DNA of 64,000 nt from Chitinophagales bacterium (GCA_038326325.1 JBBQJW010000008.1:13521-77520); one strand, 5' to 3'; shown: positions 2 through 64,000, counted from the first letter of the stretch. Notes: generated by a model from the sequence alone, not told the origin. Made by a program: numbers and translations.

Positions 2-1444
2 AAGGAAAATAATATTTGGGTTGGGGGTAACAATGTAGGAATTGATTTCAACTCAGGAAGTCCTGTAGTTTTTGACAGAACCGATAACGACAGATTTTGG
101 AGAACCAATACCTCCATTTGTGACAAGGATGGAAACCTGCTTTTCTATTCCAATGGATACAGAGTTTACAATCGCCATTTTCAAATCATGCAGGGCGGTA
201 ATGATTTGAACATTGGTGATTATGAAAGTTGGGGTTATAACTTACTAAGTGTTGATGATGGCGCAGCAATTATTCCTATTCCCGGAGATTCAAATAAGTA
301 TTATCTCTTTCATACTGATTTGAATCTTATAAACTTTGATACATTTCAGAATCAGTTAATGCCCACACATTTATTCTATGATGTGATTGATATGAATTTA
401 GATGGAGGATTAGGGGGAATTGTTTCAGGGCAAAAGGATTTAATTATTCTTTCTGATACACTTACTCTTGATGGATTTAAAATAATTAAACATGCAAATG
501 GTAGAGATTACTGGCTCGTTACTCACGAGGCAGGCAACAAAAGTTACTTACGATTTCTGATTGATGTTAATGGAATTCAAGGTCCTTTTTCTCAAAAAGT
601 AGGTGTTACTCTTGATGGTTTAAAAGCTCTTGGATTGAGTCCATTAGTATTCAATTTAAATTGTTCAAGGGCAGCACAAATACTGTGTCAAAATGCAGCG
701 GTGACCCTGTTTGATTTTGACCGTTGTACAGGTGAATTCAGCAATGAAATGTATATTCCAGTAAGTGATACACTTTATTTTGTAACAGGCGGCGGAGCAT
801 TTTCTCCCTCAGGAAAATTTCTGTATGTAACTGCAAATTGGTTTAATTACATCTGGCAATTTGATTTAGACGCATCAAATATTTCGTTAAGTAAAATCTT
901 AATTGCAAAATATGATTCTGCTTTGAATCCGTTTCCTACAGATTTTTATATGCTCTGTAACGGACCAGATGACAAGATATATTGTTGCTCTTATGATGGA
1001 GATTATTCAATACATATAATCAATTATCCAGACAGTTTAGGAATTGCCTGTGGTTTTGTTGAGAATGGTTTTTCTATTAATCCTCCGGGTATGGGATGGG
1101 GAGGAACATTTCCCAATCAGGTTAATTATTCTCTTGCTGCTTTGCCTGGTGTTTGTGATACTTTAAATCAAGACACAACTATTTTACCTGTTCCCGAATT
1201 CACATGGGGAGTTTATCCCAATCCATTCACCAATGAATTTCAACTAAGTGTAACAGGGGCACAATCAGATGCGACTCTTATAGTTTATAATTTACTTGGT
1301 CAGCAATTGTTAAATCAAAAATTAAATATCAAAAATCAAATGGCAAATGCTGTCATTAATATGAGCACTCAACCTGCCGGAGTTTATATCATCGCTCTGA
1401 AAGTGAATGATAAAACTTTTAACAGGAAAATGGTGAAGCAATAA
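2..1444 (+). CDS. T9SS type A sorting domain protein with beta-propeller-like N-terminal region (5' partial)
   Basis: Frame is open from base 2 (KENNIWVGG...SICDKDGNLLFYSNG). C-terminus VYPNPF...YNLLGQ...GVYII...KMVKQ is a typical T9SS CTD. Confidence 0.85.
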   Translation, partial: KENNIWVGGNNVGIDFNSGSPVVFDRTDNDRFWRTNTSICDKDGNLLFYSNGYRVYNRHFQIMQGGNDLNIGDYESWGYNLLSVDDGAAIIPIPGDSNKYYLFHTDLNLINFDTFQNQLMPTHLFYDVIDMNLDGGLGGIVSGQKDLIILSDTLTLDGFKIIKHANGRDYWLVTHEAGNKSYLRFLIDVNGIQGPFSQKVGVTLDGLKALGLSPLVFNLNCSRAAQILCQNAAVTLFDFDRCTGEFSNEMYIPVSDTLYFVTGGGAFSPSGKFLYVTANWFNYIWQFDLDASNISLSKILIAKYDSALNPFPTDFYMLCNGPDDKIYCCSYDGDYSIHIINYPDSLGIACGFVENGFSINPPGMGWGGTFPNQVNYSLAALPGVCDTLNQDTTILPVPEFTWGVYPNPFTNEFQLSVTGAQSDATLIVYNLLGQQLLNQKLNIKNQMANAVINMSTQPAGVYIIALKVNDKTFNRKMVKQ

Positions 1445-1542
1445 AGAGATTTCTATTTATAAAACACTTCAATAATAATCGCTTTCGAATTTTCTTTCAG
1501 AAGATATTCTCCGAGAACTTTAAATTCATTGTTGTTGAATCT

Positions 1543-2391
1543 CTATTTTCCGAAATGATTTTTTAAATACTCAATTGCAAAAATATCAGCATATGCAGCC
1601 ATCGTATAATTATAATGCGGATTACTTGGGTTGGCAAAAGCATGATCAGCATTATAACTTTTCACTGTTAAAGTTTTCCCTGCCTTCTTCATATTTGCCT
1701 CAAACTGACTCACTACTTCCGGAGTAATCCACTTATCCTGTGTTCCGAAAAAGCCAATCACATCCGTGTGTAGTTGTTTCAATTTATTTACATCAGTAAT
1801 CGGCATCCCATAATACATCACACAACCAGCTGCTTGTGTTCCAGCAAATAATGTGGCTCGCAATGATAACCCACCACCAAAACACCAGCCGAGCGTACAG
1901 ATTCTTGCTTCCTTTCCAACATATTTTATGGCACCATAAATAATAGTATCCAACCGACCATCTGTAACACTGTTTGTTAACAAAGAAGCGGTATCAGCAT
2001 TCGCAGTCATTTTCCCATCATACAAATCAATGGCAACCACATTCACATTGCCAATAGCTTTTTGCAATTCATCAGCCCGTTGCTTTATGTAATCATTCAA
2101 TCCCCACCATTCATGAAAAACGAAAAGATAATTGTTAGTAGGTGTAACACTCATCACCTCATAAGCTCCTGCAGTTTTTCCATCCGCAGTTGGAAACGAA
2201 ATCATTTTTCCTGCAGCGTTGGTATAATTAAAAGGCAATGGGCTTTCATGTGCTGCAATAAAAGCAGGGTCGCTTACGAAAGCCATAATTGAATTTTCGG
2301 AAGAACCGATGGAACAACAGGACTTTTGCGCAACTACAAAAAACGGAAACGCGAGTATTAAAATCGGGATAAAGAAGAGTTTTGTTTTCAT
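1543..2391 (-). CDS. dienelactone hydrolase family protein with signal peptide
   Basis: HEWWGLND, GWCFGG nucleophile elbow and HAFANPS motifs; likely start MKTK at 2391. Confidence 0.9.
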   Translation of the reverse strand: MKTKLFFIPILILAFPFFVVAQKSCCSIGSSENSIMAFVSDPAFIAAHESPLPFNYTNAAGKMISFPTADGKTAGAYEVMSVTPTNNYLFVFHEWWGLNDYIKQRADELQKAIGNVNVVAIDLYDGKMTANADTASLLTNSVTDGRLDTIIYGAIKYVGKEARICTLGWCFGGGLSLRATLFAGTQAAGCVMYYGMPITDVNKLKQLHTDVIGFFGTQDKWITPEVVSQFEANMKKAGKTLTVKSYNADHAFANPSNPHYNYTMAAYADIFAIEYLKNHFGK

Positions 2392-2560
2392 AAAATGGTT
2401 TTTGAAGTTTAACAAAGAAGCATCAGTTTAGTTTAATTTCAAAAGTTCTTATGAATTCATTTTTAAAATGAATTCGAATCTTAGCGCAATCAGATATTTG
2501 CAGGTAATTACACCCGAAAACAATCTTTTCTTCGCCACTTGGTAAAATGAATCAGATGTT

Positions 2561-3023: not shown

Positions 3024-3584
3024 ATGTCACGAATAGGAAAAATGCCGGTTGCCGTTGTTAAAGGTGTAACAGTCAATGTTGCTTCTAACAATGTAGTAAC
3101 TGTTAAAGGACCAAAAGGTGAATTGAAACAAAAGGTAGATGCCGACATCACCGTTAAAATGGATGGCGACAACATCATTCTCGAAAGACCTACTGAACAA
3201 AAGCGTCATAAAGCAATGCATGGTTTATATCGTGCCTTGTTGAATAATATGGTGACAGGAGTTGCTACCGGATATTCTAAGAAATTAGAAATGGTGGGTG
3301 TCGGTTTCCGTGCGACTGTTACAGGTCAGATGCTGGAGTTGAGTGTTGGTTTTTCTCACCCGGTTTTGTTCATGGTGCCTAAAGAAATTAAAATATCTGC
3401 GGAACAACTCAAAGGACAAAACCCAATGATCACTATGGAATCAGCCGATAAGCAATTGCTTGGACAGTTGGCTGCAAAAATTCGCGATGTTCGTCGCCCT
3501 GAACCTTACAAAGGAAAAGGTATCAAGTACACAACTGAAATTCTTCGTCGCAAAGCAGGTAAATCTGCAGCGAGCGCTAAATAA
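3024..3584 (+). CDS. rplF: 50S ribosomal protein L6
   Basis: MSRIGK...PEPYKGKGIKY. Confidence 0.98.
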   Translation: MSRIGKMPVAVVKGVTVNVASNNVVTVKGPKGELKQKVDADITVKMDGDNIILERPTEQKRHKAMHGLYRALLNNMVTGVATGYSKKLEMVGVGFRATVTGQMLELSVGFSHPVLFMVPKEIKISAEQLKGQNPMITMESADKQLLGQLAAKIRDVRRPEPYKGKGIKYTTEILRRKAGKSAASAK

Positions 3585-6714: not shown

Positions 6715-6726
6715 ACTGTTACACTC

Positions 6727-7512
6727 ATGATTTATTATAAAACCGATGAAGAGATTAGTCTGATTCGGGAGAGTTGTATCCTCGTTTCAAAAACATTAGC
6801 CGAAGTTGGCCAACATATTCAACCAGGTGTAACAACACAGTATTTGGATGAAATAGCTGAGACATTTATTCGAGATCATCACGCAACACCTGCATTCAAA
6901 GGGTATAGAGATTTTCCTGCTTCATTGTGTTTATCAGTTAATGAAGAAGTGGTTCATGGTATTCCATCATCAAACAGAATATTAAAAGAAGGTGATATTA
7001 TTTCTGTTGATTGCGGAACTGTTTTGAACGGTTTTGTCGGCGACAGTGCTTATACTTTTGCTGTTGGCGAAATTGATGAAGCAACTAAAAGATTATTGAC
7101 TGTTACACAAGAATGTTTGGCACTTGGAGTTGAAAAGGCAAAATATGGCAACCGAATCGGCGATATTTCATTTGCCGTACAAGACCATGCTGAGAAAAAT
7201 GGATATGGTGTGGTGCGCGAATTAGTCGGGCACGGTGTAGGAAAAAAATTACATGAAGACCCTGAAGTACCCAACTTCGGACGAAGAGGATCAGGACCCA
7301 AATTGCTTCCAGGTTTGGTAATAGCTATTGAACCCATGATTAATATGGGAAAGAAAAATGTAACAGAAGCTGATGATAAGTGGACGGTGTATGCCACCGA
7401 CAGAAAACCCTCTGCCCACTTCGAGCATACTGTTGTTGTGTTAAAAGACAGAACAGAAATGCTGACTACTTTTAAATTTATAGAAGAGAAGTTGAAGGCA
7501 GTAACAGTTTAA
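6727..7512 (+). CDS. map: type I methionine aminopeptidase
   Basis: VVHGIP, GDSAYT, GHGVG, AIEPM and SAHFEHT motifs. Confidence 0.97.
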   Translation: MIYYKTDEEISLIRESCILVSKTLAEVGQHIQPGVTTQYLDEIAETFIRDHHATPAFKGYRDFPASLCLSVNEEVVHGIPSSNRILKEGDIISVDCGTVLNGFVGDSAYTFAVGEIDEATKRLLTVTQECLALGVEKAKYGNRIGDISFAVQDHAEKNGYGVVRELVGHGVGKKLHEDPEVPNFGRRGSGPKLLPGLVIAIEPMINMGKKNVTEADDKWTVYATDRKPSAHFEHTVVVLKDRTEMLTTFKFIEEKLKAVTV

Positions 7513-15340: not shown

Positions 15341-15372
15341 TTCATTCAATACAATAACTGTAACAGTCACTC

Positions 15373-16011: not shown

Positions 16012-17004
16012 ATGAGCATACTCACTTTCCAGAAACCTGATAAAATCGTTCTTCAGAAAGCAACTGACTTCGAAGGATTTTTTGAATTCCGTCCGTTGGA
16101 GCCGGGATTCGGTGTAACAATCGGAAACGCGCTTCGCCGTGTGCTTCTTTCTTCATTGGAAGGATACGCCATCAACGCGGTTCGCATCAGCGGAGTAGAA
16201 CATGAATTCAGCACTATCAAAGGTGTAACAGAAGATGTAACAGAAATTATTCTGAACCTCAAGCAGGTTCGTTTCAAGAAAGTTTCTGACGAAGAAATTT
16301 CATCAGAAAAAATTCTTGTTTCTGTAAAAGGAAAAGATGAATTCACTGCAGGAGATATTGAAAAGGCAACTGCCGGTTTCAAAATCATGAATCCTGATTT
16401 AGTGATTTGTCACTTGGAGAAAAATGTAAAGTTTGATATTGAATTAAATGTTTCTAAAGGTCGCGGATATCTTCCTGCTGAAGATCAGAAACTAAAAGAA
16501 TCACCACTTGGTACTATTGCTACTGATGCTATTTACACTCCGATTAAGAATGTAAAATATGCAGTGGAAAATACTCGTGTTGAACAAAAGACCGACTACG
16601 AAAAACTCATTATTGAAATTACTACCGACGGAACTATTCACCCTGAAGAATCAATTAAGGAAGCTGCAAAAATTTTGATTCAGCACCTCATGTTGATTTC
16701 TGACGAGAATATTTCTTTTGATAACAAGGAGAAGAAAGAAGAAGATGTAGTTGACGAACATGTATTACACATGCGCAAACTATTGAAAACTCCATTGGAA
16801 GATTTGGATTTGAGTGTTCGTGCCTACAACTGTTTGAAAGCAGCGAAAATTGGTAGCTTGGCTGAAATGGTGAAATACGATACTAACGAGTTGTTGAAAT
16901 TCCGCAACTTCGGTCGTAAGAGTTTAATGGAAATTGAAGCGTTGATTAACGAGAAAGGATTGCACTTCGGAATGGATCTTTCTAAATTTAAAATTGAAGA
17001 CTAA
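16012..17004 (+). CDS. rpoA: RNA polymerase alpha subunit
   Basis: [21 protein letters not shown]...[10 protein letters not shown]. Confidence 0.98.
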
Positions 17005-22481: not shown

Positions 22482-24560
22482 ATGGAACTTTCAACCAAAA
22501 ATTCAAAATCCGGAATCTCAATTGACTCGCATTACCTCAGAGCATTTGAACTAATGTGTTGTGCGAAGTATATGGCGCAGGTATATGAAGAGAATAGGCA
22601 GATTACAAAGTATGTCCACAGCACTTCACGCGGACACGAAGCCATTCAACTCGCCACTGCGTTTCAATTATTGCCTTGTGATTTTGCATCGCCCTATTAT
22701 CGAGATGAAAGTATGTTGCTTGGTATGGGTTGGGAGCCATACGAGTTGATGTTACAGTTGCTCGCAAAAAAAGATGACCCGTTTTCAGGTGGAAGAAGTT
22801 ATTACTCGCATCCCTCTTCAAGAAGAAAAGACAGACCTGTAATTCCTCATCAAAGCAGCGCGACAGGTATGCAGGCGATTCCTGCAACAGGCATGGCGCA
22901 GGGAGTTCAGTACTCAGAGAAAAAAAATTTATTAAAGAGTGATGAGCCTCCAATCGTGTTGTGTTCGCTTGGCGATGGAAGTGTAACAGAAGGTGAAGTA
23001 AGTGAAGCATTTCAATTTGCAGTGCTCAAACAATTGCCGATAATTTATTTAGTGCAGGATAATGATTGGGGGATTTCTGTTTCGAGTGACGAAGCGCGTT
23101 GCATGGATGCTTACGAATATGCTGCAGGTTTCAAAGGCATGAAGCGCGTGCGAGTTGATGGCAGTGAATATCATCTAGCTTACAGTTGCATGAAGGATGC
23201 AATTGATTTTGTGCGCACACATCGAAAACCAATTTTGGTTCATGCGAAAGTTCCGCTTCTTGGTCATCATACTTCGGGTGTGCGAAAGGAGTGGTATCGA
23301 AGTGAAGAAGATTTAAAAAAACATTATCGCGACGATCCTTTTCCGAAACTCCGCAGTTTTTTATTGAAGATGGGAGTGGAGGAAAGTTGGCTGAACGAAA
23401 CTGAAGAGAAAGCGAAAGAAAAAGTTTACAACGATTTCAAACGAGCTGTAGCCGCACCCGACCCGGAACCGGAAAGTGTAACACTTCACGAATTTGCTGA
23501 AACAACTGTTACAGAAGAAAAAGGTGAGCGAACTCCGGCGGGAAAAGAAAAAGTGGTAATGGTTGATAGTGCGCTTCACGCAGTGGATGAAATATTAAAA
23601 GCAAATGAAGAGGCAATTTTTTTCGGACAGGATGTTGGAAGAAGATTAGGTGGTGTGTTTCGTGAGGCAGCAACACTTGCAGAGAAATATGGCGACGACA
23701 GAGTTTTCAATACCGCAATTCAGGAAGCATACCTTGTGGGTAGCACAGCAGGACTTAGTGCGGTGGGTGTAAAAGCAATTGTAGAAATTCAATTCGCAGA
23801 TTATATATGGACTGGTGTGAATCAATTGGTAACTGAACTTTCGAAAAGTTGTTATCTCACAATGGGAAAATTTCCTGTAGGTACGGTGATTCGAATTCCC
23901 ATTGGTGCTTATGGCGGAGGCGGTCCGTATCACAGCGGGTGTATTGAGTCGAGCATTCTTGCAGTGCGGGGAATAAAAGTTTGTTATCCGAGTAATGCCG
24001 CTGACATGAAAGGTTTAATGAAAGCCGCTTTCCTCGATCCTAATCCGGTGGTGATGTTCGAACACAAAGGATTGTATTGGAGTAAAGTTCCGGGAACGGA
24101 CGAAGCAAAAACCATTGAGCCATCCGAAGATTATATTCTCCCACTCGGAAAGGCAAATATTATACAACTTGCAAGTGTAACAGAAATTGAAAATACACTC
24201 ACCATTATCACTTACGGTATGGGTGTTTACTGGGCGAAGAATGCAAGCAAAAATTTTCCCGGCTGTGTGGAGATTGTTGACCTTCGCACACTCAATCCGC
24301 TCGACGAAGAAACTGTTACAGCATCTGTTCGCAAACATGGAAAATGTATCGTGCTCACCGAAGAACCGATTCAGAATTCTTTTGCAATGGCTCTCGCAGG
24401 AAAAATTTCTGAAACTTGTTTTCAGTCGCTTGACGCACCTGTAAAAACCATTGGCGCAAAACCTTTACCTGCTGTGGGTTTAAACTTAGTGTATGAAAAA
24501 GCCATGTTGCCCAATGCGGAAATTGTTGCGGAGGAAATTGGGAAGATGTTGAGGAGTTAA
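22482..24560 (+). CDS. fused 2-oxoacid (branched-chain-type) dehydrogenase E1 alpha/beta
   Basis: GDGSVTEG TPP motif, EIQFADY and HSG motifs. Confidence 0.92.
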   Translation: MELSTKNSKSGISIDSHYLRAFELMCCAKYMAQVYEENRQITKYVHSTSRGHEAIQLATAFQLLPCDFASPYYRDESMLLGMGWEPYELMLQLLAKKDDPFSGGRSYYSHPSSRRKDRPVIPHQSSATGMQAIPATGMAQGVQYSEKKNLLKSDEPPIVLCSLGDGSVTEGEVSEAFQFAVLKQLPIIYLVQDNDWGISVSSDEARCMDAYEYAAGFKGMKRVRVDGSEYHLAYSCMKDAIDFVRTHRKPILVHAKVPLLGHHTSGVRKEWYRSEEDLKKHYRDDPFPKLRSFLLKMGVEESWLNETEEKAKEKVYNDFKRAVAAPDPEPESVTLHEFAETTVTEEKGERTPAGKEKVVMVDSALHAVDEILKANEEAIFFGQDVGRRLGGVFREAATLAEKYGDDRVFNTAIQEAYLVGSTAGLSAVGVKAIVEIQFADYIWTGVNQLVTELSKSCYLTMGKFPVGTVIRIPIGAYGGGGPYHSGCIESSILAVRGIKVCYPSNAADMKGLMKAAFLDPNPVVMFEHKGLYWSKVPGTDEAKTIEPSEDYILPLGKANIIQLASVTEIENTLTIITYGMGVYWAKNASKNFPGCVEIVDLRTLNPLDEETVTASVRKHGKCIVLTEEPIQNSFAMALAGKISETCFQSLDAPVKTIGAKPLPAVGLNLVYEKAMLPNAEIVAEEIGKMLRS

Positions 24561-24569
24561 ATTTTATTC

Positions 24570-25778
24570 ATGCGCTCAAAGAAAACAGAAAGGGATTTTT
24601 ATGAGAATAAAAATTTTGTTATTCCTGAATGGGATGCAGGTTATATATATTCAAGTGTGAACCCAAATTATCTCAACAAGAAAGTAAAAAATTTTTACGA
24701 ATATTTTAGGGAACAATTTTTTAAGGGAGAATATGTTGAGATCAATAAAAATTGGAGTTATTTATTTAATCTGTTTTATGAATTAATTGAAACATCAAGA
24801 GATGAGACTGAACTTTTGTTGACGCTAAACAAATTGGCAGTTCAATATCCTAAAATTTTAAACTATGTAAAGCGATTATATTTTTACAGAGATATAAAAG
24901 GATATGAAGAAGGAACAACGAGACTTGCTGAGAAACTTTTATCGTTGGAATCAAAATATATTTTTAATGAAGAGACAATAAAACTGAGAAAGCAATTAGG
25001 TTCCACACAGTGCAGTCTCGAATTATTTCTGAGTGAATTATTTACCGAGAAACCATTATTAAAAATTAGAGGCGGTTCTTATCTGAATAGAGTTACAGAG
25101 TATGGATTGAAAAATAAGAATTATCTCTTCGAAAGAATCGATAATTTTTTTGAGCAATACTATTTAGAAAATAAAAAATTCTTTCTTTCAGAATTCTATT
25201 TAGGGATAACAAAGGAAAATGTAAAAAATATTGACATTGAAAATTTGAAATCAAAGTTTTCTGATAAGGAAAAACTTGAAGAAATTATTAATTGGGAAAA
25301 TCAATACTTTGAAATAAATAGTAGAAATAATCCTTTCTGTATTCGAGGATACCATTTAGCAGAAAGGAAATTTGAATTTACGGTTAGCGAAATGATGAGA
25401 GGTTTTGAAAATGATTTGCGAAGTGAAAACAACCTGCCAAAAATCGGAGAAGGCTGGATAAGTGAAACGGAATTATTTTACAAGATAAAGACTGAGTTCA
25501 AGAATCTCAATGTACTACAACACTATAAGCCAAAATGGCTCGGAAGACAACACTTTGATGTATTTATTCAAGAGTACAATATTGCAATCGAATATCAGGG
25601 AAAGCAACACTATGAGCCTGTTGAATTTTTCGGTGGAGAAAAAGCCTTTTTAAAAAATCAAGAACGAGATGTTCGAAAGAGAAATTTGTGTATTGAGAAT
25701 AAATGCAAATTGATTTATGTTGATGAAGGTGAAAGCTGGGAAACCGTAAGAGATAAAATTGAAATTAATTTTTCGTGA
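24570..25778 (+). CDS. hypothetical protein with TerB_N-like N-terminus and C-terminal PD-(D/E)xK-type endonuclease domain
   Basis: C-terminal RQHFDVFI...IAIEYQGKQHY...ERDVRKR; low GC. Confidence 0.6.
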   Translation: MRSKKTERDFYENKNFVIPEWDAGYIYSSVNPNYLNKKVKNFYEYFREQFFKGEYVEINKNWSYLFNLFYELIETSRDETELLLTLNKLAVQYPKILNYVKRLYFYRDIKGYEEGTTRLAEKLLSLESKYIFNEETIKLRKQLGSTQCSLELFLSELFTEKPLLKIRGGSYLNRVTEYGLKNKNYLFERIDNFFEQYYLENKKFFLSEFYLGITKENVKNIDIENLKSKFSDKEKLEEIINWENQYFEINSRNNPFCIRGYHLAERKFEFTVSEMMRGFENDLRSENNLPKIGEGWISETELFYKIKTEFKNLNVLQHYKPKWLGRQHFDVFIQEYNIAIEYQGKQHYEPVEFFGGEKAFLKNQERDVRKRNLCIENKCKLIYVDEGESWETVRDKIEINFS

Positions 25779-25792
25779 ATTGCATTTTCAAT

Positions 25793-26476
25793 TTATTTTT
25801 TCTTTAGAGCTTCTATATTCGATTTAATAAACTCTGCGTCTCGTTCAGCACTTTTTTTAACATAAGAAGTGTTCTCTATTTTCCAAATTGTATTATGATA
25901 AGCCATACCATAAATTGATATTATTTCATAAGCGAAGTTCAGTAATCTCTCAGCTACATCAAAGTTAAAATTTAATTCATCTCTCGCTTCATTATGGGCA
26001 ACAACCTTATCTCTCAATAATTTTAAAATACTAACATCATTTTGAAAATTTTTGCCTTTGTATTTTTCAAGATAATATTGAGAAAGCAATTTAGGGAAAA
26101 GGCTTTTATCTATACTTGTCACTGCATTTATCAATTCATCGGGGCAATTATTTTCTTGGAGAAGCCTTTTAGTATTTGATGTTTCAATTATTTGAACCGC
26201 TTTTGATGAATTTGATTGAAGCAATTTCAAAAAAGACAAGATACATCTGGTCGGATATTTTTTACTGGGATTATCAAATACTTTTGCTAAAGCAAGAATA
26301 AAATTTATTTGAGCAGATTGTTGAGTGAAACTATAAAGGTCTTTAATGTATTTTTTCTGTTGCTGCAAGAAAATCTGTTCTCCCCCTACATACTGCCAAA
26401 TGAGAATATTCCTTTCTGCAATGAATGTTTGGAAAACTAACCCCTTAATAAAACAATCATTTATTTCTTCAGTCAT
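25793..26476 (-). CDS. putative HEPN (AbiU2-like) protein
   Basis: All-helical; LAKVFD and LRDKVVAH motifs. Confidence 0.6.
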   Translation of the reverse strand: MTEEINDCFIKGLVFQTFIAERNILIWQYVGGEQIFLQQQKKYIKDLYSFTQQSAQINFILALAKVFDNPSKKYPTRCILSFLKLLQSNSSKAVQIIETSNTKRLLQENNCPDELINAVTSIDKSLFPKLLSQYYLEKYKGKNFQNDVSILKLLRDKVVAHNEARDELNFNFDVAERLLNFAYEIISIYGMAYHNTIWKIENTSYVKKSAERDAEFIKSNIEALKKK

Positions 26477-26593
26477 TTATCGCTGCAAAATAGCAAAGAC
26501 AAAAAATTCACCATGATCCTTCACCAAGTATATACTAATAATTGAAGAGTTGTCAACCTTTGAAAAACTTGGCGACTCTAAAACTGAAAAATA

Positions 26594-39303: not shown

Positions 39304-40164
39304 ATGAAAAAAGTCTTTCTGTCAATTATCGTCATTTCACTTTTCGCTTCGTGCGGAAATAAATCAACTGAAAATTCTGCAACTGAAAAAACAGAAAAGA
39401 AAAGTATTACTCTGAAAGGTAGTGATACAGTTCTTCCACTTGCTCAGAAAGAAGCTGAAGAATTTATGAAGAAAGATTCTACCGCATCAATAACTGTTAC
39501 TGGTGGCGGAACGGGTGTTGGTTTTGCTGCGTTGATAGATAAGACAACTGATATTGCAATGGCATCGCGTGCAATTAAATTAGATGAGAAAACGAAATTG
39601 GAAACAAAGAGTGTTACAGTTAAGGAGGTGTTGATTGCAAAAGATGCGCTTGCCGTTATTGTTAATCCTTCCAATAAAATTTCTCAACTCACAAAGGAGC
39701 AACTGAAAGATATTTTCACAGGAAAAATCACAAATTGGAAACAAGTAGGTGGAGATAATTTAAAGATTGTAGTGTATGCGCGCGAAACAAGTTCAGGCAC
39801 TTACGAATTTTTTAAAGAGCATGTAATGGATAAAACCAATTACGATAAATCAGTTTTAAACTTGCCTGCAACCGGAGCAATCGTACAGAGTGTGAGTCAG
39901 ACAAAAGGTGCTATCGGTTATATTGGACTTGCTTACCTGAACGCTGATGTAAAAGATATTGCAGTGAGTTATGATAATGGAAAAACTTTTATAAATGCAA
40001 ATACAGAAAACGCAATAAATGGAACTTACCCTATTACCCGTCCGCTGTTTTATTATTTTGATGAAACATTGGATTCAAAAGTGAAATCGTTTATTGATTT
40101 TGCTTTGTCGGCAGAAGGGCAAAAAATTGTTAGCGATGTCGGTTATGTTCCAGTGAGTAAATAA
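39304..40164 (+). CDS. pstS: phosphate ABC transporter substrate-binding lipoprotein
   Basis: Lipobox FASC; KGSDT, GGGTGVG, SSGTYEFF and YPITRPL motifs. Confidence 0.9.
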   Translation: MKKVFLSIIVISLFASCGNKSTENSATEKTEKKSITLKGSDTVLPLAQKEAEEFMKKDSTASITVTGGGTGVGFAALIDKTTDIAMASRAIKLDEKTKLETKSVTVKEVLIAKDALAVIVNPSNKISQLTKEQLKDIFTGKITNWKQVGGDNLKIVVYARETSSGTYEFFKEHVMDKTNYDKSVLNLPATGAIVQSVSQTKGAIGYIGLAYLNADVKDIAVSYDNGKTFINANTENAINGTYPITRPLFYYFDETLDSKVKSFIDFALSAEGQKIVSDVGYVPVSK

Positions 40165-40236
40165 TTGAATTTAAAATTCAGTTTATAGCTCTCATTCACA
40201 TTTTTTAGTTGGAAAAAAAATATTTGGCTAATTGTT

Positions 40237-41172
40237 GTGAAAGTAATTTTGAAAAAAAAGAAATTGGAGATAAAGAAATTCGCAGCGATAGATATTGGTT
40301 CTAATTCTGTTCGCTTACTTATTTCCAATGTTCTTCTCAATGGCGAAGGTCCATTTTTTAAACGCAGTTCTCTTATACGAGTTCCTGTTCGTTTGGGAAG
40401 TAATGCATTTACAAATCATAAAATTCCTGAAGTTACGATTCAGCATTTAGAAGAAACAATGCTTGCATTCAAACACCTGATGAGTGCGAACGATGTTATT
40501 CATTATAAAGGTTGCGCAACATCAGCGCTGCGCGAAGCGAACAATGGCAAATTGGTTGTTAATCGTATAAAGAGGAAAACTGGATTGCTGATTGAAATTA
40601 TTCCAGGTTCATTGGAGGCGCATTTAATTTTCAATAGTCAGAGTGCGTGGGTGGAGAGGATGCAAAGCAATTGTGTGTTTGTGGATGTGGGGGGAGGAAG
40701 TACTGAGATTACTTTATTTTCAAAGGGAAAAGCTATTGCGGTAAAGTCATTCAACATTGGCACACTACGCATTTTACAAAATCAGGTGAGAAGGGAGTCG
40801 TGGAAAAAAATGAAAGAGTGGGTAAAGGAGAAAGCAGGTGATTTGAAAAATTTTAAAATCATTGGTTCAGGAGGAAACATAAACAGTTTTGCGAAAATCA
40901 GTGGATTGAAACCTGGCAGAGCATTGTCGTTTGTTAAACTGAATGAGATGGTCGAAAATTTAACTGTACTGAACATTGATGAACGAATGAAACAATACGA
41001 CCTTAATCCCGACCGAGCAGATGTTATAGTTCCCGCTGGAGAAATTTTTATTCGCATTATGAAATGGGTCGAAGTCGCAGAAATTTTTATTCCCAAAATT
41101 GGTTTGGACGATGGTATAGTTCGTGAAGTTTATAAAGAATATTTAAACGGAAAGAAGAGTAGTTTTAAATAA
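40237..41172 (+). CDS. ppx: exopolyphosphatase Ppx/GppA family
   Basis: AAIDIGSNSVR, ATSALREA, DVGGGSTE and RADVI motifs. Confidence 0.9.
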   Translation: MKVILKKKKLEIKKFAAIDIGSNSVRLLISNVLLNGEGPFFKRSSLIRVPVRLGSNAFTNHKIPEVTIQHLEETMLAFKHLMSANDVIHYKGCATSALREANNGKLVVNRIKRKTGLLIEIIPGSLEAHLIFNSQSAWVERMQSNCVFVDVGGGSTEITLFSKGKAIAVKSFNIGTLRILQNQVRRESWKKMKEWVKEKAGDLKNFKIIGSGGNINSFAKISGLKPGRALSFVKLNEMVENLTVLNIDERMKQYDLNPDRADVIVPAGEIFIRIMKWVEVAEIFIPKIGLDDGIVREVYKEYLNGKKSSFK

Positions 41173-41395
41173 TATTATCAATAATTTTATTTGAAAGAAT
41201 CGTACTTATATTCCCTGATATGCGAGTAATGATACACAAGTCAGCTGAAAAATATTTCCTGGAAAAGAAAAACAATAAAATTTTTCATTGTTATTTCAAT
41301 CTGTCAGTGACATTGGAAAGTTATCTTATCTAATATGTATTGATTATAGTAAAATGATTGAAGAATTAATCTTAAAATAATATTTTTTTAATTTA

Positions 41396-41818
41396 TTATG
41401 TGGCAAGTAGTTTCATAACCCTCGCCAATAGTTTTCGGCAATCAATAACTTCATTAAATGGTTGACTGATTCCAACTGTTAATCCCTTTACCCTTAATAG
41501 AAACACGCATTTATTGTCAGTTGTAATTTTCTTTTTCTTACGCATATCGTTTTGATTACAGGCAAGTAATATTTGCAATCGTTTGTTGCATTCATATTGG
41601 GTTGTGAAGCCAGGACTATTAAATAATGTTTCTGAATTGCCCGTTAGTTGATAGTGATAAGCGCCTTTTGAATTTCTATAAAATTCAAAATGGACTGAAT
41701 TTTCATTCTTGGTTTTTACAACTAACTCTTGCTTATTAAAATTATTCGCTGCATTTACTTTCATCACAATGGGTTTCGTATCCATAAAAATTGTGCAGTA
41801 AAATTCTTTAAATTTCAT
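41396..41818 (-). CDS. divergent YegP/DUF1508-like protein
   Basis: FEFYRNSKGAYHYQL...SPGFTTQYEC pattern. Confidence 0.5.
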   Translation of the reverse strand: MKFKEFYCTIFMDTKPIVMKVNAANNFNKQELVVKTKNENSVHFEFYRNSKGAYHYQLTGNSETLFNSPGFTTQYECNKRLQILLACNQNDMRKKKKITTDNKCVFLLRVKGLTVGISQPFNEVIDCRKLLARVMKLLAT

Positions 41819-41854
41819 TTCCTAAATGGTACAGATGATCCATTTATTTTAATT

Positions 41855-42040
41855 CTAAATAGTTGAAATAATCCGGTTGACTTCTTCTCTTGATATACCC
41901 AACTTAATTTGAAGTTTAGCTATCAGCTCTTCTTTTTTACCTTCAACAAAAAGCAAATCGCAGTTTGTAAGCGAAGCAAATTTCTGCTTGAGTTTCGCTT
42001 TTTGTTCATTCCAGTTGCCGTTCAGTTCTGTACCACTCAT
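41855..42040 (-). CDS. CsbD-like general stress protein
   Basis: GNWNEQKAKLKQKFASLT..DL...GK.EEL...LQIKLG. Confidence 0.85.
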   Translation of the reverse strand: MSGTELNGNWNEQKAKLKQKFASLTNCDLLFVEGKKEELIAKLQIKLGISREEVNRIISTI

Positions 42041-42079
42041 TTTTTATTATTTAACTTGTGAATGTTTTTTATTACTTGG

Positions 42080-42145
42080 CAAAGTTGACAGAGTAGAGCA
42101 CGATAACAGTTACACGCCTTCATAAATAAGTTGCATCATTCACAG
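42080..42145 (-). promoter_or_regulatory. regulon promoter A (CsbD-like gene)
   Basis: Minus strand TGTGAATGATGCAAC...GTGTAAC (21-bp spacing)...CAACTTTG. Confidence 0.75.
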
Positions 42146-42367
42146 ATTGCGATCGGTATTTTATTAATTCTTTAAATCCAGATTCAGTTATTATGAATCA
42201 ATTTATAGAATTCGAAATCCACATTAGCGGACTCTGTTGGTTCATAGGCAAGAACATCGTATGCGAAATTATCTGCCAAAAAAACATTGTATGGATTTAT
42301 TAATACCGCAAAAGTTATTTTGACTTTTGGGTCTCGTTCGAAATATCTAAAGTAAAACATGATGTTG

Positions 42368-42433
42368 CAAATGTGAAAGGTATAATGTCTTAATATGTTA
42401 CACTATTGTTAGTATATGTTGCATCATTCCCAT
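42368..42433 (-). promoter_or_regulatory. regulon promoter B
   Basis: TGGGAATGATGCAAC...GTGTAAC...CACATTTG. Confidence 0.75.
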
Positions 42434-52389: not shown

Positions 52390-53343
52390 ATGAAAAAAAT
52401 GGCTCTCAGAATAATTTTATTATCAGTCGTGATTTTTATTCAATTTGGGGAAGTTTATTCCCAAAATTCCCCAATTGATTCTTTACTGAAAACACCAACT
52501 GATACTGTTACACTAATTCCCGGAAAAGATTCCACAGTAAAAGCTCAATCTTCGATTCATCCATACAAAATAAGATTTTGGCTGAGTGGAGGTATTTCAG
52601 TAATAGGATCAATAGGCGATTATTACGCGATACCACGAATACTCGGAAAGAAAAAAATTACAGACGAAGAACTTGCGGCGTTAAACCCATCAATTCTAAC
52701 CCGACTCGACCGCTGGGCTCTAATGCAAGACCCAACCAAGCGTGTTTACTTCGACCACATGTCCGATAATGTGATAACTGGAATTTTTCTTCTACCTGTT
52801 ACACTTGCTTTTGATAAAAATATTCGTCACGACGGATTGAAATTGCTCCTCATGTATTACGAAAGTCAGGCAGTCACTTTCAGTATTTTCAATTACAGTT
52901 TTCTTGGACCAACCTTCCAGAATAAATTTCGACCAATGACATATTACACCAGTATTCCTGTTGGTGACAGAAATATCGGCAACAACCGCAATTCATTTTT
53001 TGCGGGCCATGTATCATCAGCAACTGCGGCTTCTTTTTTCATGGCGAAAGTTTATTGCGACTATCATCCGAACCTTGGTGCGAAAAAATATTTAATATAT
53101 GCAGCGGCAACCGTTCCTTCCCTTGCAATGGGTTATTTAAGAATGCGGGCGCTAAAACATTTTCCTTCAGATATACTTGCTGGAATGACCGTCGGTGCTG
53201 TATGCGGAATTGCAATTCCTGAGTTGCATGCTCTGAAATACAAACATTTGAAACTCGCATTCTTCGCTTCACCAAAGGGAGCAAGCGGATTGACAATGAA
53301 CTGGAATCTCGCTGAAGGAACGAACAAAAAATTAAAATCATAA
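52390..53343 (+). CDS. PAP2 family protein with signal peptide
   Basis: FRP, SFFAGH and R....KHFPSD motifs. Confidence 0.88.
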   Translation: MKKMALRIILLSVVIFIQFGEVYSQNSPIDSLLKTPTDTVTLIPGKDSTVKAQSSIHPYKIRFWLSGGISVIGSIGDYYAIPRILGKKKITDEELAALNPSILTRLDRWALMQDPTKRVYFDHMSDNVITGIFLLPVTLAFDKNIRHDGLKLLLMYYESQAVTFSIFNYSFLGPTFQNKFRPMTYYTSIPVGDRNIGNNRNSFFAGHVSSATAASFFMAKVYCDYHPNLGAKKYLIYAAATVPSLAMGYLRMRALKHFPSDILAGMTVGAVCGIAIPELHALKYKHLKLAFFASPKGASGLTMNWNLAEGTNKKLKS

Positions 53344-53356
53344 AAATTAAAATCAC

Positions 53357-53551
53357 ATGAACTTAAAAAGAATTTTTGGCGGTATACTTACTACAGCAGG
53401 AATTGTCGGATTGATTTATGGAGCAGTACTATTCATGAATACAGGGGGCGCACAGCGCGATATCAGAGGAATAATAATTTTTGCATTACTGGGAATTGTT
53501 TTCTTCATAACTGGCATTAGTTTAATAAGAACAACAAAAGACGAATCTTAA
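53357..53551 (+). CDS. small two-TM protein
   Basis: MNLKRIFGGILT...GISLIRTTKDES. Confidence 0.75.
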   Translation: MNLKRIFGGILTTAGIVGLIYGAVLFMNTGGAQRDIRGIIIFALLGIVFFITGISLIRTTKDES

Positions 53552-53558
53552 ATTATTT

Positions 53559-55673
53559 ATGGATATAGCAACTCAGGATTATTCGAAACTTTCCGAAGAG
53601 GTAAAAAAATATGTGCGATCATTTTTTAATGATATTACAAGTAGTCGCTATAAGTATCACAACCTTGCTCATACTGAAAGCGTGGTTGCTGCCGCAAACC
53701 AGATAGCAGATCATTATAAACTGAACGAGCATGATTTATTTATTGTGAATGCAGGTGCTTGGTTTCACGATGTCGGTTACTTTACGGTGCTCGAAAACCA
53801 CGAAGAAAAAGGTGTTGCCATCGCCGAAAACTTTTTTAAAGACAAAGGGCTTGATGCAGACACGATTGCTGGAGTGAAGAACTGTATTCTCGCCACACGC
53901 ATTCCGCAGAAGCCAACTAATTTATTAGAGCAAATTATTTGCGACGCAGATTTATTTCATCTGGGTACTGATAAATTTATGGAGCGCAACAAGGAAGTGC
54001 GCAACGAAATAGAAGAACTTACCGGAAACAAGATAAAGAAAAAAGTCTGGCGCGAACAGAGTATTGAATTGCTGGAAGGTCATCATTACTTCACAGACTA
54101 TTGCAATCAGTTACTCGAAGCAAAAAAAAAAGAAAACCTAAAAGCGCTGCAAACGATGAAAGAAAACGCGCCTGAAAAAAAACATGCACATCAGGATGAA
54201 GAAAAAAAACATGGGCATCATCACTCCGACAAAAAAAAACATTCACATCCAGAGTCAGAAATTGTGATTGACCAAAAAAAATCGAAGAGCGAAATAAAGG
54301 AGGACGAAAAGATTGAAAGTTTAAGAGCGAAAGATGCACCTGCCGATAAAGGAGTTCAAACCATGTTCAGAATCACATCGGGAAACAACCAGAAACTAAG
54401 TGATATGGCAGACAACAAGGCCCATATCATGATAACGGTGAATTCAATTATTCTCTCTGTAGTTATCGGAGTTTTATTCCGCAAACTCGACCCCGACAAT
54501 TCAATTGTCTATCCTACAATGCTCTTTATCGCAATCAGTTTAGCAACAATCATATTCGCTATTCTCGCTACGCGCCCATCCATTCCAAACGGAATATTTA
54601 CAAAAGAAGATATTACGAATAAAAAAGTGAATCTTCTGTTCTTCGGAAATTTTTATAAGATGTCCCTCGAAGATTATACCGAAGGCATGTTCCATGTGAT
54701 GGAAGACCGAAGTTTTCTTTACTCCTCACTCATCAAAGATGTGTACGCACAAGCTGTTGTGCTCGGTCGTAAGTATCGTCAGTTGCGTATCTCTTACAAC
54801 ATTTTCATGTTTGGGTTAATCGCCTCAGTACTCGGTTATGTAATCGCTTTAATGTTTTTTACCCCCGAACCGTTACAGACAGTTCTCCAAACAAATCTGT
54901 ATAAAAACCCTACTGGCTACGACCTCTCACAACCCGAAAAAATTTCATTGCCATCTGCTTTAAACGAAGTGTCGGGCATAGCATTCAATAAAGGAAATTC
55001 CGATACAATTTATGCCCAGCAAGATGAAAATTCATTGCTATTTCATTTTCAATTAGGTGATAAAAATGAATTCACCACAAAATTTGGAAAGAAAGGCGAT
55101 TACGAAGACCTTACAATTTGCAAAAGAAATGTTACACTGTTACGCAGTGATGGAGTGCTTTTTACTTTTCCACTCGGAGAGGCAAATCAATCAGAGTTAA
55201 CTGATGCAAAAGAATGGGATAATTTGTTGCCTGGTGCCGAATACGAAAGCATGGCATCCATTGAATCAACAGGAGAAATATTCGTTTTGTGCAAGCACGA
55301 TAAAGGAAGCAAAGACGAAAAATCAAAAGGATATATTTTCAAACAGGCATCCGACGGCAGTATCATCTCCTCCGGAAAATTCAATATCGACTGGGACGAA
55401 ATAGCAGCAAAAACAGGTGACAAGAAAACTGATTTCCGTCCATCAGGAATGGCGTTGAATCCGTGCACAAACGAGTGGTATATTATTTCATCAGTCAACA
55501 AACTTCTAGTTGTTACCGATCCCAATTTTAAAGTTAAAGAAGTTTATTCTCTCAAGCCAACTACCTTCCGTCAACCCGAAGGCATTGCGTTCGACGACGA
55601 TTGCAATCTATATATTTCTAACGAAAAAACTGCAAACACAAAACCATCCATTCTAAAGTTTACTTATCAATAA
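53559..55673 (+). CDS. fusion: HD domain, His-rich linker, DUF5706/Pycsar-effector-like TM domain, SdiA-regulated-like propeller
   Basis: YHNLAHT/FHDVG/CDADL; LSDMADNKAHIMITVNSII...KYRQLRISY; EVSGIAF/GDYEDL/QPEGIAFD. Confidence 0.8.
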   Translation: MDIATQDYSKLSEEVKKYVRSFFNDITSSRYKYHNLAHTESVVAAANQIADHYKLNEHDLFIVNAGAWFHDVGYFTVLENHEEKGVAIAENFFKDKGLDADTIAGVKNCILATRIPQKPTNLLEQIICDADLFHLGTDKFMERNKEVRNEIEELTGNKIKKKVWREQSIELLEGHHYFTDYCNQLLEAKKKENLKALQTMKENAPEKKHAHQDEEKKHGHHHSDKKKHSHPESEIVIDQKKSKSEIKEDEKIESLRAKDAPADKGVQTMFRITSGNNQKLSDMADNKAHIMITVNSIILSVVIGVLFRKLDPDNSIVYPTMLFIAISLATIIFAILATRPSIPNGIFTKEDITNKKVNLLFFGNFYKMSLEDYTEGMFHVMEDRSFLYSSLIKDVYAQAVVLGRKYRQLRISYNIFMFGLIASVLGYVIALMFFTPEPLQTVLQTNLYKNPTGYDLSQPEKISLPSALNEVSGIAFNKGNSDTIYAQQDENSLLFHFQLGDKNEFTTKFGKKGDYEDLTICKRNVTLLRSDGVLFTFPLGEANQSELTDAKEWDNLLPGAEYESMASIESTGEIFVLCKHDKGSKDEKSKGYIFKQASDGSIISSGKFNIDWDEIAAKTGDKKTDFRPSGMALNPCTNEWYIISSVNKLLVVTDPNFKVKEVYSLKPTTFRQPEGIAFDDDCNLYISNEKTANTKPSILKFTYQ

Positions 55674-61950: not shown

Positions 61951-62856
61951 TTAAAACTGTAAATTCATATTCATCACCATTCCTCCTTTCAAAGAAGGAG
62001 CAAGGCCTAGATCTAATTTGGTTTTCTTATGTGGCTTGTAACCAAAGTTACGATGCAATTCAGGAATAATGAATCCGCTCAAAGCCCCAAGAGCATATCC
62101 TGTAATTACATCAGTTGGGTAATGTTTTCCCCCCTTTACCCGAAAATATCCCTCAGCAGCAGGAAGTGCGGCAGCGAAAGCCCAGATTCCAACTTTAATT
62201 CCCGGACGAAGATTATGATAGTCAGTAATCACTTTTGCAAATAAGAAAGTAGCGGCGGCTGTTTGTGAAGTATGACCTGAATAGAAAGACTGTCGTGATT
62301 CTTTATTTGTTCTGATTTTGTCAGACAAAGAAGTATTATAAACATAAGGTCGAGTGCGATTCACTGTGCTTTTCACAATGTATGTTGCACCGTAGTTGAG
62401 TGCGAATGCCTCTAATGTCATTATACCAAGTGATTTAAAATCATGACCTGTATGATGTTCTGATACAAATAGAACCGGCAAGAGAGAAATTCCAATTAGC
62501 ATGTAATCACTCAATGAAGCGATACTCGGGTTCCAGAATCCTGTGGCTTGTCGGTCGAAGGGATTGATTTTATTTTTATCAAGACTACTCAGCGCATCGG
62601 GAGTATAAGGTTTTGTTTTATCTGTCTTAGTCATATAATATCCAGTTGAAAAAACAGCGGCTGAGGTAAGCAGAAAGGGCCACTCCTTTTTCCACGAGTG
62701 ATTGTAAGGTTCTCCAATGAGATGTTGGTCGTTGTGACACATCCAGCAATAATCGTGAAGTGTGTCAACAGGAACCCAGTTTTTTGGATACTGTGCCTGC
62801 GCAGATGCATAAAAAATCAATAGGGAAAAAATTAGAATAATGCTTTTCTTTTTCAT
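61951..62856 (-). CDS. PAP2 family protein with signal peptide
   Basis: K....RTRP, SFYSGH and RVKGGKHYPTDV motifs. Confidence 0.9.
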   Translation of the reverse strand: MKKKSIILIFSLLIFYASAQAQYPKNWVPVDTLHDYCWMCHNDQHLIGEPYNHSWKKEWPFLLTSAAVFSTGYYMTKTDKTKPYTPDALSSLDKNKINPFDRQATGFWNPSIASLSDYMLIGISLLPVLFVSEHHTGHDFKSLGIMTLEAFALNYGATYIVKSTVNRTRPYVYNTSLSDKIRTNKESRQSFYSGHTSQTAAATFLFAKVITDYHNLRPGIKVGIWAFAAALPAAEGYFRVKGGKHYPTDVITGYALGALSGFIIPELHRNFGYKPHKKTKLDLGLAPSLKGGMVMNMNLQF

Positions 62857-63100
62857 GTAGTTTTTATTTGTTGAAATTTCTTGATAATAAATTAATACCA
62901 ACAATCAATCCCAAACATGAAACTTATTTTAAAAATAGTAGATAATCGCATTTACAATCTTATATAAGACACAAATTAATAATGTATTTCATCTTTAAAT
63001 ATTCAAATCAGCAAATCTTCAAATAATAATTCTGGTGGCTCCATTGTTGTAACACTCGAATCAAGGTTCATGTGCAAATAATAATTGCGCGAATCATTTC

Positions 63101-64000
63101 ATGAAGCAATTTTTATTAAACATCTCTCAGGACATCTCATCTTACAAATTATTGGATTCTTCCTTATCATTTAAACCGTTTTCTGATTTTCTGAAACGAA
63201 ATGTCGAAGCTGAAGAAACAATTATCAAAACACGACTCTACAATTTTCTGATTCAGAAATTAAACGAGTATCCTGAATTGAAATTGTCAATGGATGTTGC
63301 AACAGTTGGCGAATACAAAGAATTACTCGAATTAATTTATTCCGGAATGACTGGAATAACTGGCGAAGAAATTTACTGGGCACTCGCAACACCTGAGTCA
63401 GGTTCCGTGTTTTATGGAACTGACCCGCTATATGATTTAATCGCTTCCGCAAAACCGGAAGAGGTAACTTCAGATTCGAACAACGAAAATGGAAATTCAA
63501 ATCTTCAACTCTCGTTTATTTATTCTTTCATTCTGGAAAACTGTTACAACTATAAATCTCCGGTGAAAGCAGAACTGCTTCAACCCTTCGCTGACACCGG
63601 AACCGGAATTATGAAGTACTACAAAATGAATATTGATTCCACTTTCGTAAAGGTCGAAGCAAAATCTTCATTACCAAAAATTGATTTCACGGAACTTGAA
63701 ATTCAGGTGAGCAACAATACCCTACTGAATTATCTCACTAAAATTCTTCCCCTCAGTTTATTTTCCTTTCGCGGCTTCACTGTAATTACACTTTATGACC
63801 GCACTGAAGATTTTGTGTTAAAAAAAATCAGCGACAGTATTGCCAATATAAACATCAATCCGCAAAATGATGACGAAGTAATTGTAGCATTGAAAGCGCT
63901 CGCAGGCAACATGCAATTGCATTTGAAATTAATTCCATTCGTGAAATTGAATGACAAATTCCTACCTGACTATAGCGAGACTTTAATTTCACAATCACTA
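63101..64000 (+). CDS. large Bacteroidota GAF-domain-type protein (3' partial; missing from the ORF track)
   Basis: Frame from ATG 63101: MKQFLLN...LSFKPF...YWALATP...FYGTD; appears to run off the window end. The GAF domain itself is not visible. Confidence 0.6.
   Translation, partial: MKQFLLNISQDISSYKLLDSSLSFKPFSDFLKRNVEAEETIIKTRLYNFLIQKLNEYPELKLSMDVATVGEYKELLELIYSGMTGITGEEIYWALATPESGSVFYGTDPLYDLIASAKPEEVTSDSNNENGNSNLQLSFIYSFILENCYNYKSPVKAELLQPFADTGTGIMKYYKMNIDSTFVKVEAKSSLPKIDFTELEIQVSNNTLLNYLTKILPLSLFSFRGFTVITLYDRTEDFVLKKISDSIANININPQNDDEVIVALKALAGNMQLHLKLIPFVKLNDKFLPDYSETLISQSL

Follow-up and report, generated by a model that had tools for sequence, protein, structure and literature searches.

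What makes a seven-base word recur every few hundred bases throughout a bacterial genome? This question is raised by a stretch of 64,000 nucleotides (hereafter the window) from the genome of an uncultured sediment Chitinophagales bacterium (GCA_038326325.1 JBBQJW010000008.1:13521-77520; G000:C8:13521-77520 in our designation), which is densely sown with the quasi-palindrome TGTWACA. Each site reads TGTAACA on one strand and TGTTACA on the other, and W is not a degeneracy here. The assembly, called G000 below, comprises 3,683,896 bp in 67 contigs (the longest of 368 kb) with a GC content of 37.4%, and its nearest named relatives by SecY are uncultured Chitinophagales genomes assembled from metagenomes. 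A single metagenome run, probably the source, contains this DNA, in the form of contigs. Hyper-abundant short words are known from few lineages, namely as the highly iterated palindrome HIP1, the uptake signal sequences (USS) and the DNA uptake sequences (DUS), and only USS and DUS are understood mechanistically. The literature searched yielded no description of an iterated or uptake-type word from Bacteroidota. Comparisons were made within sets of 28 family genomes, 301 order genomes and another 400 from the phylum; g1 denotes the genus of G000 itself (including G001-G005), g8 that of G013 and g6 that of G011.

In the window we found 103 TGTWACA sites between positions 781 and 63548, about one per 620 bp, among them all 15 coordinates quoted when the repetition was first noticed and put at about 100 sites. 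One hundred dinucleotide-preserving shuffles gave a mean of 10.16 sites (standard deviation 3.27, maximum 19), and none of them reached 103; the excess first reported is real, and its size is about 10-fold rather than 7-fold. The full 9-mer STGTAACAG is present on one strand at 50 sites, against 0.48 expected. G000 as a whole contains 6482 sites in 3.68 Mb (about one per 570 bases), its plus strand carrying 3238 TGTAACA and 3244 TGTTACA, where Markov models of orders 1-3 expect 589-1105 sites. Ranked by observed/expected ratio, the top four 7-mers of G000 are all parts of this word.

When all sites are read with A in the centre, their flanks are unequal. Position -1 is G (0.40) or C (0.38) about equally often, position +7 is G in 0.66 of the sites and position +8 is T in 0.58. 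The oriented word is 5'-S-TGTAACA-G-(T)-3', 9-10 bp long and not a plain palindrome, and the symmetric S flanks of the original prediction have to be given up. Two extended forms, GTGTAACAG and CTGTAACAG, occur in 1713 and 1692 copies in G000, which is 123 and 127 times the order-1 expectation; ATGTAACAG (585 copies, 22x), GTGTAACAC (501 copies, 35x) and CTGTAACAC (424 copies, 30x) follow. The one-off variants xTGTAACGG (22-25x) and xTGTATCAG (12-15x) are also enriched and their mirror images are not; therefore, the specificity is graded and asymmetric. Symmetric CTGT..ACAG arms are present in only 1692 of the 6482 sites (26%), and with its odd length the word is not a perfect palindrome of the HIP1 type. 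The form TGTSACA stands at 0.36x of its Markov expectation in G000 and was rejected as a clue, since its depletion is genus-wide (only 0.81x relative to G001).

A word of this kind might be a by-product of coding, with a Val-Thr dipeptide or a codon pair being favoured for its own sake, and 71% of the sites in G000 (4609) do lie in the frame xxT-GTW-ACA. The others are divided between xTG-TWA-CAx (830, of which 829 have TTA), TGT-WAC-Axx (373), the space between open reading frames (ORFs; 628) and ORF edges (42). The gene calls behind these classes are crude, consisting of the longest ORFs of at least 90 aa (2842 ORFs, 88% of G000), and "between ORFs" takes in any shorter gene. In the window the corresponding numbers are 74 sites in xxT-GTW-ACA, five in TGT-WAC-Axx, five in xTG-TTA-CAx and 19 between ORFs; the last two classes bear out the claim that sites occur in another frame and in short intergenic gaps (at 6717, 7826, 10318, 10360, 10810, 15359, 27915 and 31825, among others).

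Ten synonymous within-gene shuffles of G000 gave 911, 155 and 95 sites in the three frames, where 4609, 829 and 374 are observed. A first-order codon Markov chain expects 2646, 125 and 258; this chain keeps every codon-pair count, and its expectation already holds much of the signal. The excess survives even this dicodon-preserving expectation, and it is also present outside genes, the 443 kb between ORFs carrying 628 sites against 68, 74 and 101 expected from Markov orders 1-3 (about 9-fold). Neither of the two outcomes named beforehand as refuting the original prediction was thus obtained. The logo of the spacer sites equals that of the coding sites, with the same asymmetric flanks. Within genes, the codon preceding an in-frame GTW-ACA ends in T in 88.7% of cases (4609 of 5197), compared with 45.8% for GTW codons without a following ACA, and the pair GTG-ACA is five-fold under-used (145 vs 705). 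The data thus support selection of the word at the DNA level rather than the protein level, as originally proposed. The codon explanation is refuted, and we give it practically no weight.

Along the genome the sites are spread evenly. All 702 five-kb segments of G000 contain at least one site, and only one of them has no more than that; closely spaced pairs are scarcer than expected (0.23x at less than 10 bp, 0.55x at 10-20 bp), and spacings of 100-400 bp are mildly in excess. Site density falls around start codons and rises 1.3-1.5-fold in the 40 bp past stop codons, and at the end of 43 genes the stop codon itself lies inside the word (xTG-TAA-CA). Neighbouring sites are preferentially separated by multiples of 6 bp (30, 36, 42, 48, 54), which probably reflects alternating Val-Thr in beta-strands.

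The orientation of the sites bears on a Chi-like role, in which the word would tame a helicase-nuclease and mark self DNA in recombinational repair. Like Chi, it is a short, abundant, lineage-specific word over-represented in its host genome. Known Chi sites, however, show over-representation far below the excess found here, are strongly co-oriented with replication and are read by RecBCD or AddAB, whereas the oriented word TGTAACAG is found 1046 times forward and 1014 times reverse at positive GC skew and 986 and 993 times at negative skew (Spearman rho 0.007). RecC (PF04257) was found in none of the 28 family genomes; AddAB was not searched. A Chi-like component has been suggested for HIP1 (10.1101/2024.09.10.611283). 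In total, we regard a Chi-like role as very improbable.

There are 63 gaps of at least 2.8 kb between sites in G000, and the size class of 3.2-6.4 kb has 37 members where 21 are expected. The longest gap, of 5957 bp, is a complete rRNA operon, and others of normal GC content span highly constrained genes, namely rpoB, dnaE, metH, a mutase-dnaA stretch, rpsB-tsf, sufB and sprA. The 20 low-GC gaps scanned (GC at most 0.342) contain AAA_15/21 ATPases, P63C and O-antigen or capsule genes, and of the 66 ORFs in them, 23 match no Pfam family. These accessory islets may be foreign, recently acquired DNA.

How widely is the word distributed? Against a control of the reversed word, TGTWACA is present 6482 vs 618 times in G000 and 4674 vs 468 times in G013. 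The six other g1 genomes have 729-2079 sites vs 499-770, forming with G000 a 9-fold density gradient within one genus (729-6482), and in all other genera of the family set the ratio of word to control is about 0.4-1.6. The symmetric 9-mer CTGTWACAG gives the same picture among the order genomes, with 1692 copies in G000, 1393 in G013 and then 364, 254 and 204, and its maximum among the further phylum genomes is 143. Saturation is limited to G000 and G013 (two of 301 in the order, none of 400 in the rest of the phylum), and g1 has the same dialect at lower density. The proposal of a Bacteroidota sequence is therefore too broad in scope, the word belonging to one genus and one genome of a second genus, both in a single Chitinophagales family.

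In a tree resting on a single protein, SecY, the branching order is (g4,(g8,(g6,g1))), with moderate support for the g8 node (84/67), and the cold genome G011 of g6 lies between the two hot lineages. The terminal SecY branch of G000 is long (0.052, compared with 0.003-0.022 in six congeners), as is that of G013 (0.25); only one motif site lies within SecY, and hence the word is not the reason for the long G000 branch.

The two hot lineages use different forms of the word. The ratio of GTGTAACAG to GTGTTACAG is 1713 : 424 in G000, 431 : 136 in G002, 259 : 93 in G004 and 214 : 87 in G005; it is reversed in G013 (259 : 879) and is 48 : 31 in the cold sister genome G011. Thus, the g1 dialect is S-TGTAACA-G (in all four g1 genomes counted) and the g8 dialect is S-TGTTACA-G, i.e., [C/G]TGTTACAGT, with the same flanks and the central pair flipped. 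The logo from a 400-kb sample of G013 matches the T-centre dialect. Since coding constraints are alike in g1 and g8, two genera with mirror-image rules cannot be a coding artefact. Aligned sites of G000 and G013 coincide in 67 of 183 and 67 of 194 cases, and the same centre is found in only 33 of the 67; this fits independent, parallel saturation of conserved X-Val-Thr positions. A lower figure from a small alignment (2 of 15 sites shared) was replaced by this larger sample (about 35%).

This distribution also bears on the possibility that an abundant nucleoid-associated or chromosome-organising protein binds TGTWACA in its many copies, and that selection on chromosome structure maintains the sites. 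A role in chromosome structure was reportedly proposed for HIP1 by Xu, Lawrence and Durand, and the even genome-wide spread, the absence of strand or replication bias, the symmetric arms compatible with a dimer and the retention of a relative's sites (described below) would all agree with it. Saturation in just two of the 301 order and 400 phylum genomes, with a cold sister genus in between, would be unexpected for such a site; moreover, stretches of 4-6 kb at the rRNA operon, rpoB and dnaE do without the word, and its presence costs amino-acid changes. We consider a nucleoid-related function improbable.

To see how the sites arose, we aligned about 8 kb of G000 with four genomes of the same genus (G002-G005). 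Fourteen G000 sites fall in aligned columns, of which one is common to all four relatives (GGTGTAACAGT at 3065..3071), three are each shared with one relative and ten are present in none. In the spacer that separates secY (stop at 6714) from map (start at 6727), the site ACTGTTACACT at 6717..6723 corresponds to ATTATTTTAAG or similar in the relatives; therefore, several substitutions made this site. A second spacer site, the fully palindromic ACTGTAACAGT at 15359..15365 directly upstream of an ORF starting at 15373, corresponds to ACAGTAATAAA. In map, GGT-GTA-ACA (Gly-Val-Thr) at 6828..6834 replaces GGA-ATT-TCT or GGT-ATC-AGC (Gly-Ile-Ser), two amino acids having changed from Ile-Ser to Val-Thr; ACT-GTT-ACA (Thr-Val-Thr) at 7101..7107 stands for CGA-ATT-ACT (Arg-Ile-Thr) or AAA-GTT-ACG, and a further map site at 7359 involves a Ser to Thr replacement. 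Two rpoA sites 12 bp apart (16224..16242) arose from GTAACT, GTAACC or GTGACT by third-position changes. The word was thus created by substitutions of all kinds, with transversions (from GTAACC or GTAACT to GTAACA), amino-acid replacements and clusters of four or five changes among them.

A larger alignment of G000 with G001 (322 kb, 74.9% identity) shows that sites, once present, tend to be retained: 65 of the 109 G001 sites are also sites in G000, where only 17% of any 7-mers are identical. In the opposite direction, only 65 of 563 G000 sites are sites in G001. The word was made by thousands of point substitutions in place, in genes (in all frames and on both strands) and in spacers.

Such changes could in principle come from a functionless mutational or repair bias, for example from a mismatch-processing or nicking enzyme that acts on heteroduplexes or lesions close to partial matches and resolves them in favour of the full word. 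Near-motif words are conserved below average between G001 and G000 (6.5-11% vs 17%), some sites show four or five clustered changes, and density varies 9-fold within g1, all of which such a bias could produce. It would, however, need a specificity of 7-9 bp together with every type of change at every position, and one-off neighbours are only mildly depleted (mostly 0.64-0.98x relative to G001). The enrichment of CCWGG through Dcm and Vsr very-short-patch repair illustrates that a W-centred palindrome can be enriched by site-specific mismatch repair. In the present case many of the word-creating changes are transversions, and the transition neighbours are not specifically depleted (TATAACA 0.88 and TGTAATA 1.31 of the order-1 expectation). 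Vsr passes the cut-off in seven of the 28 family genomes (eight at E<=0.001, including a broken G000 fragment) with no relation to the motif. It is intact in G002 and G005, absent from G013 and reduced in G000 to a 30-aa remnant with an internal TGA (G000:C3:90437-90526); very-short-patch repair was therefore rejected. MutH is over the cut-off in none of the 28. We know of no precedent for a repair or mutational bias of such strength, and consider this origin hardly probable, slightly below the nucleoid-related function.

The word has left its mark on the proteome. Val-Thr is the fourth most over-represented dipeptide in G000 (1.61-1.62x) and is enriched 1.57x in G013, compared with 1.08-1.30x in small samples of cold genomes. 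The residue before Val-Thr in G000 is enriched for Thr (3.2x) and Ser (1.8x), and the share of Lys, Glu, Gln, Met and Trp, whose codons offer no final T, is 7.9% at this position, compared with 18.4% in front of other Val. The word form is used at 67% (4609 of 6841) of the X-Val-Thr tripeptides whose X has a T-ending codon. These data demonstrate that a directional force maintains a lineage-specific DNA-level word, prevailing over codon choice and at times over protein sequence. Its strength suffices to fix the word at 67% of eligible X-Val-Thr and to alter the use of amino acids. In rRNA, rpoB and dnaE the force is too weak to establish the word, and it has not yet acted on the low-GC accessory islets.

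Which known system does this behaviour resemble? USS are known to affect proteomes, and molecular-drive models exist for uptake sequences. Like the word described here, the USS of Pasteurellaceae have a core of about 9 bp with graded flanks, a density of about one per kb, sites in all frames with preferred ones, effects on peptide content, over-even spacing and two family dialects. They differ in having AT-rich flanking segments, in being non-palindromic and in belonging to hosts known to be competent, whereas the present word is known from sequence alone. The DUS of Neisseriaceae are likewise short asymmetric words in thousands of copies, used equally on both strands in genes and spacers, with single-base dialects between genera and densities that differ widely between species. 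They are, however, 10-12 nt long and non-palindromic, often form inverted repeats in terminators, and are read by ComP, a minor pilin of the type IV pilus; in our case the core is quasi-palindromic, close pairs are under-represented and a pilus ATPase was not found in G000 or G013. HIP1 (GCGATCGC) and the alternate cyanobacterial palindromes share with the word an origin in place, a comparable fold excess, most relaxed outer positions and retained sites, and transformation is now implicated for them. HIP1 differs as a perfect, GC-rich palindrome of even length with known methyltransferase sites, spread over its phylum; ours is AT-rich, of odd length, asymmetric in flanks and variants, and confined to one genus and one genome. 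The asymmetry, graded tolerance, strand neutrality and single-base dialects resemble DUS and USS more than HIP1, and the symmetric arms and density resemble HIP1. The analogy with HIP1 and uptake sequences, drawn in the original prediction, thus holds for behaviour, i.e., for lineage specificity, dialects, in-place origin and proteome effects.

The reading that we tentatively prefer, at somewhat less than an even chance, is a self-DNA tag of the USS, DUS or HIP kind that would owe its spread to a sequence bias in some step of DNA exchange, the same route as in the uptake sequences of Pasteurellaceae and Neisseriaceae and one lately suggested for HIP1. During uptake, processing or recombination, a reader protein of graded specificity would prefer word-carrying DNA, and alleles with the word would be passed on in excess within the population (molecular drive). 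Such a reader would be inherited in g1, and a relative with the central pair flipped would act in g8. Many of the results described above support such a tag: the DNA-level excess, strand-equal use, absence of GC-skew bias, even spread and close-pair deficit; the graded specificity, asymmetry and genus-specific dialects; the in-place origin, site retention and proteome effects; the scarcity of sites in low-GC accessory loci and in genes under the strongest constraint, together with mild post-stop enrichment; the presence of ComEC in G000; and, finally, the link of HIP1 to transformation given below. A narrower version, which is possible and somewhat more doubtful, is that the word serves uptake or self-recognition in a pilus-independent Bacteroidota transformation system, with a reader whose specificity would have shifted at a single central base pair between the two genera, both in the same family. 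According to a study on Riemerella (PMC8459023), transformation there depends on ComEC, DprA, ComF, RecA and four Bacteroidetes-specific proteins of unknown function and needs no type IV pili; the missing pilus ATPase therefore does not exclude competence. It lowers membership in the USS/DUS class, not the analogy.

Several points weigh against a tag of this sort. Uptake of DNA by the organism is itself hypothetical, and every supporting pattern would equally be expected from a biased process inside the cell or from selection acting on a binding site. ComEC is present in 27 of the 28 family genomes, hot and cold alike, and was rejected as a discriminator as near-universal. T2SSE/PilB-type ATPases (PF00437) are below the Pfam cut-off in G000 and G013 (in the family set only G008 has a match), and our searches gave no receptor candidate. 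The symmetric arms TGT/ACA are typical of sites of dimeric proteins or type II methyltransferases and not of USS or DUS, and the sites form no inverted pairs in terminators, unlike those of Neisseria. A search for horizontally shared genes, with 2842 G000 ORFs compared by tblastn with a portion of G013 of about 410 kb (some 13% of the total), gave no high-identity outliers.

A 613-aa gene for a cargo protein of the type IX secretion system lies between comEC and yidC (L185:11187-13028, G000:C13); comEC and yidC are adjacent in G004, and the gene is a lineage-specific insertion. The presence of such a cargo gene beside comEC in each hot genome was treated as chance, as the two are not homologous and that of G000 is absent from G004.

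The resemblance to HIP1 raises the alternative of a word tied to methylation, in which an orphan methyltransferase would modify the word or its inner part (e.g., GTWAC) and the word's accumulation would be favoured by some process that depends on the methyl group, be it the choice of strand in repair, the control of replication or methyl-dependent transformation. Methylation-linked accumulation was reportedly proposed for HIP1 by Elhai. The quasi-palindromic core and the density of about one site per 0.6 kb would suit such a mechanism. The outermost positions are the most relaxed, as described for HIP1 (PMC4390886), and the roughly 125-fold excess of the 9-mer falls within the 15-300x range given for HIP1 (PMC5861425). 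With a motif filter and Pfam we found eight DNA methyltransferase-like genes in G000, a list that may be incomplete, the true number being at least eight. Four of them, L124 (D12-class), L125 (gamma-class), L128 (C5) and L139 (Eco57I-like), had no match at E<=1e-5 in the five genomes searched with each, G013 always included. L118, a restriction-modification fusion followed by an HsdS gene, has a type I/IIB architecture that reads bipartite sites; its match in G013 is an M+S fusion only 31-32% identical in a non-syntenic place. L136 has only a weak partial match there (E 6e-9). Both were rejected as a shared cause, their G013 matches being distant. Thus, the search for a co-occurring methylase that had been suggested gave no enzyme common to G000 and G013 among the six of eight genes searched in G013, two HsdM genes not having been searched.

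Methylation is further opposed by the asymmetric enrichment, which is unlike the site of a symmetric enzyme, by the state of MutH and Vsr given above, and by the lack of an excess of the C-to-T decay product (TGTAATA 0.64x relative to G001). We therefore judge a methylation-tied word unlikely, if less so than the nucleoid, repair or Chi-like explanations. The uptake and HIP readings may in fact be converging, as HIP1 itself has recently been reported to raise transformation (10.1101/2024.09.10.611283) and was linked to transformation elsewhere (PMC13756078). In G013 we also noted a 679-aa fusion of an N6 methyltransferase with an HsdS-like part between scpB and a DUF4290 gene (L190:7471-9510, G013:C11); in G000 the latter two genes sit on different contigs.

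Neisserial DUS have dialects too. What this Bacteroidota example adds is a 9-fold gradient within a genus, mirror dialects in two genera split by a cold sister, and near-saturated synonymous opportunities with rewriting of the proteome. Because of these three features, the reader protein and the choice between drive and selection become testable by comparative genomics, and by uptake assays if an isolate is obtained. If the pilus-independent uptake reading is true, the receptor could be found by comparing g1, g8 and the cold sister g6, and the word would be the first uptake-type word in Bacteroidota. It may also serve to flag recently acquired DNA in these genomes, and efficient genetic manipulation of the group may require it.

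Three long motif-free segments lie in the window and follow the genome-wide pattern of gaps. The first, at 24321..26659 (2.3 kb, GC 0.32-0.33), confirms that the low-GC cassette at 24.6-26.5 kb is free of sites. It contains an ORF without Pfam match (402 aa, 24570-25778) and an AbiU2-type HEPN gene (25793-26476) on opposite strands, and it is likely a recently acquired defence islet; the gap alone is not significant, as a mean spacing of 560 bp predicts about one such gap per window. The second (39619..42395, 2.8 kb, GC 0.30-0.33) contains a Ppx/GppA gene (40237-41172). The third (52804..55129, 2.3 kb) covers most of a gene for a 704-aa protein (53559-55673) with an N-terminal HD domain and a Pycsar-effector-like PycTM domain, which is possibly a stand-alone cyclic-nucleotide defence effector.

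Elsewhere in the window, the minus strand at 31833-36293 carries a 1486-aa ORF upstream of prmA and tpiA, which matches no Pfam family at E<=1e-5. Finally, other words also differ in frequency between G000 and a 400-kb sample of G001: GCGATTG/CAATCGC and GCGAATG/CATTCGC are 2.2-2.5 times commoner in G000, and words with TGGCCA (0.29-0.36x) and CAGCTG (0.43x) are much rarer, a rarity that could reflect restriction avoidance.

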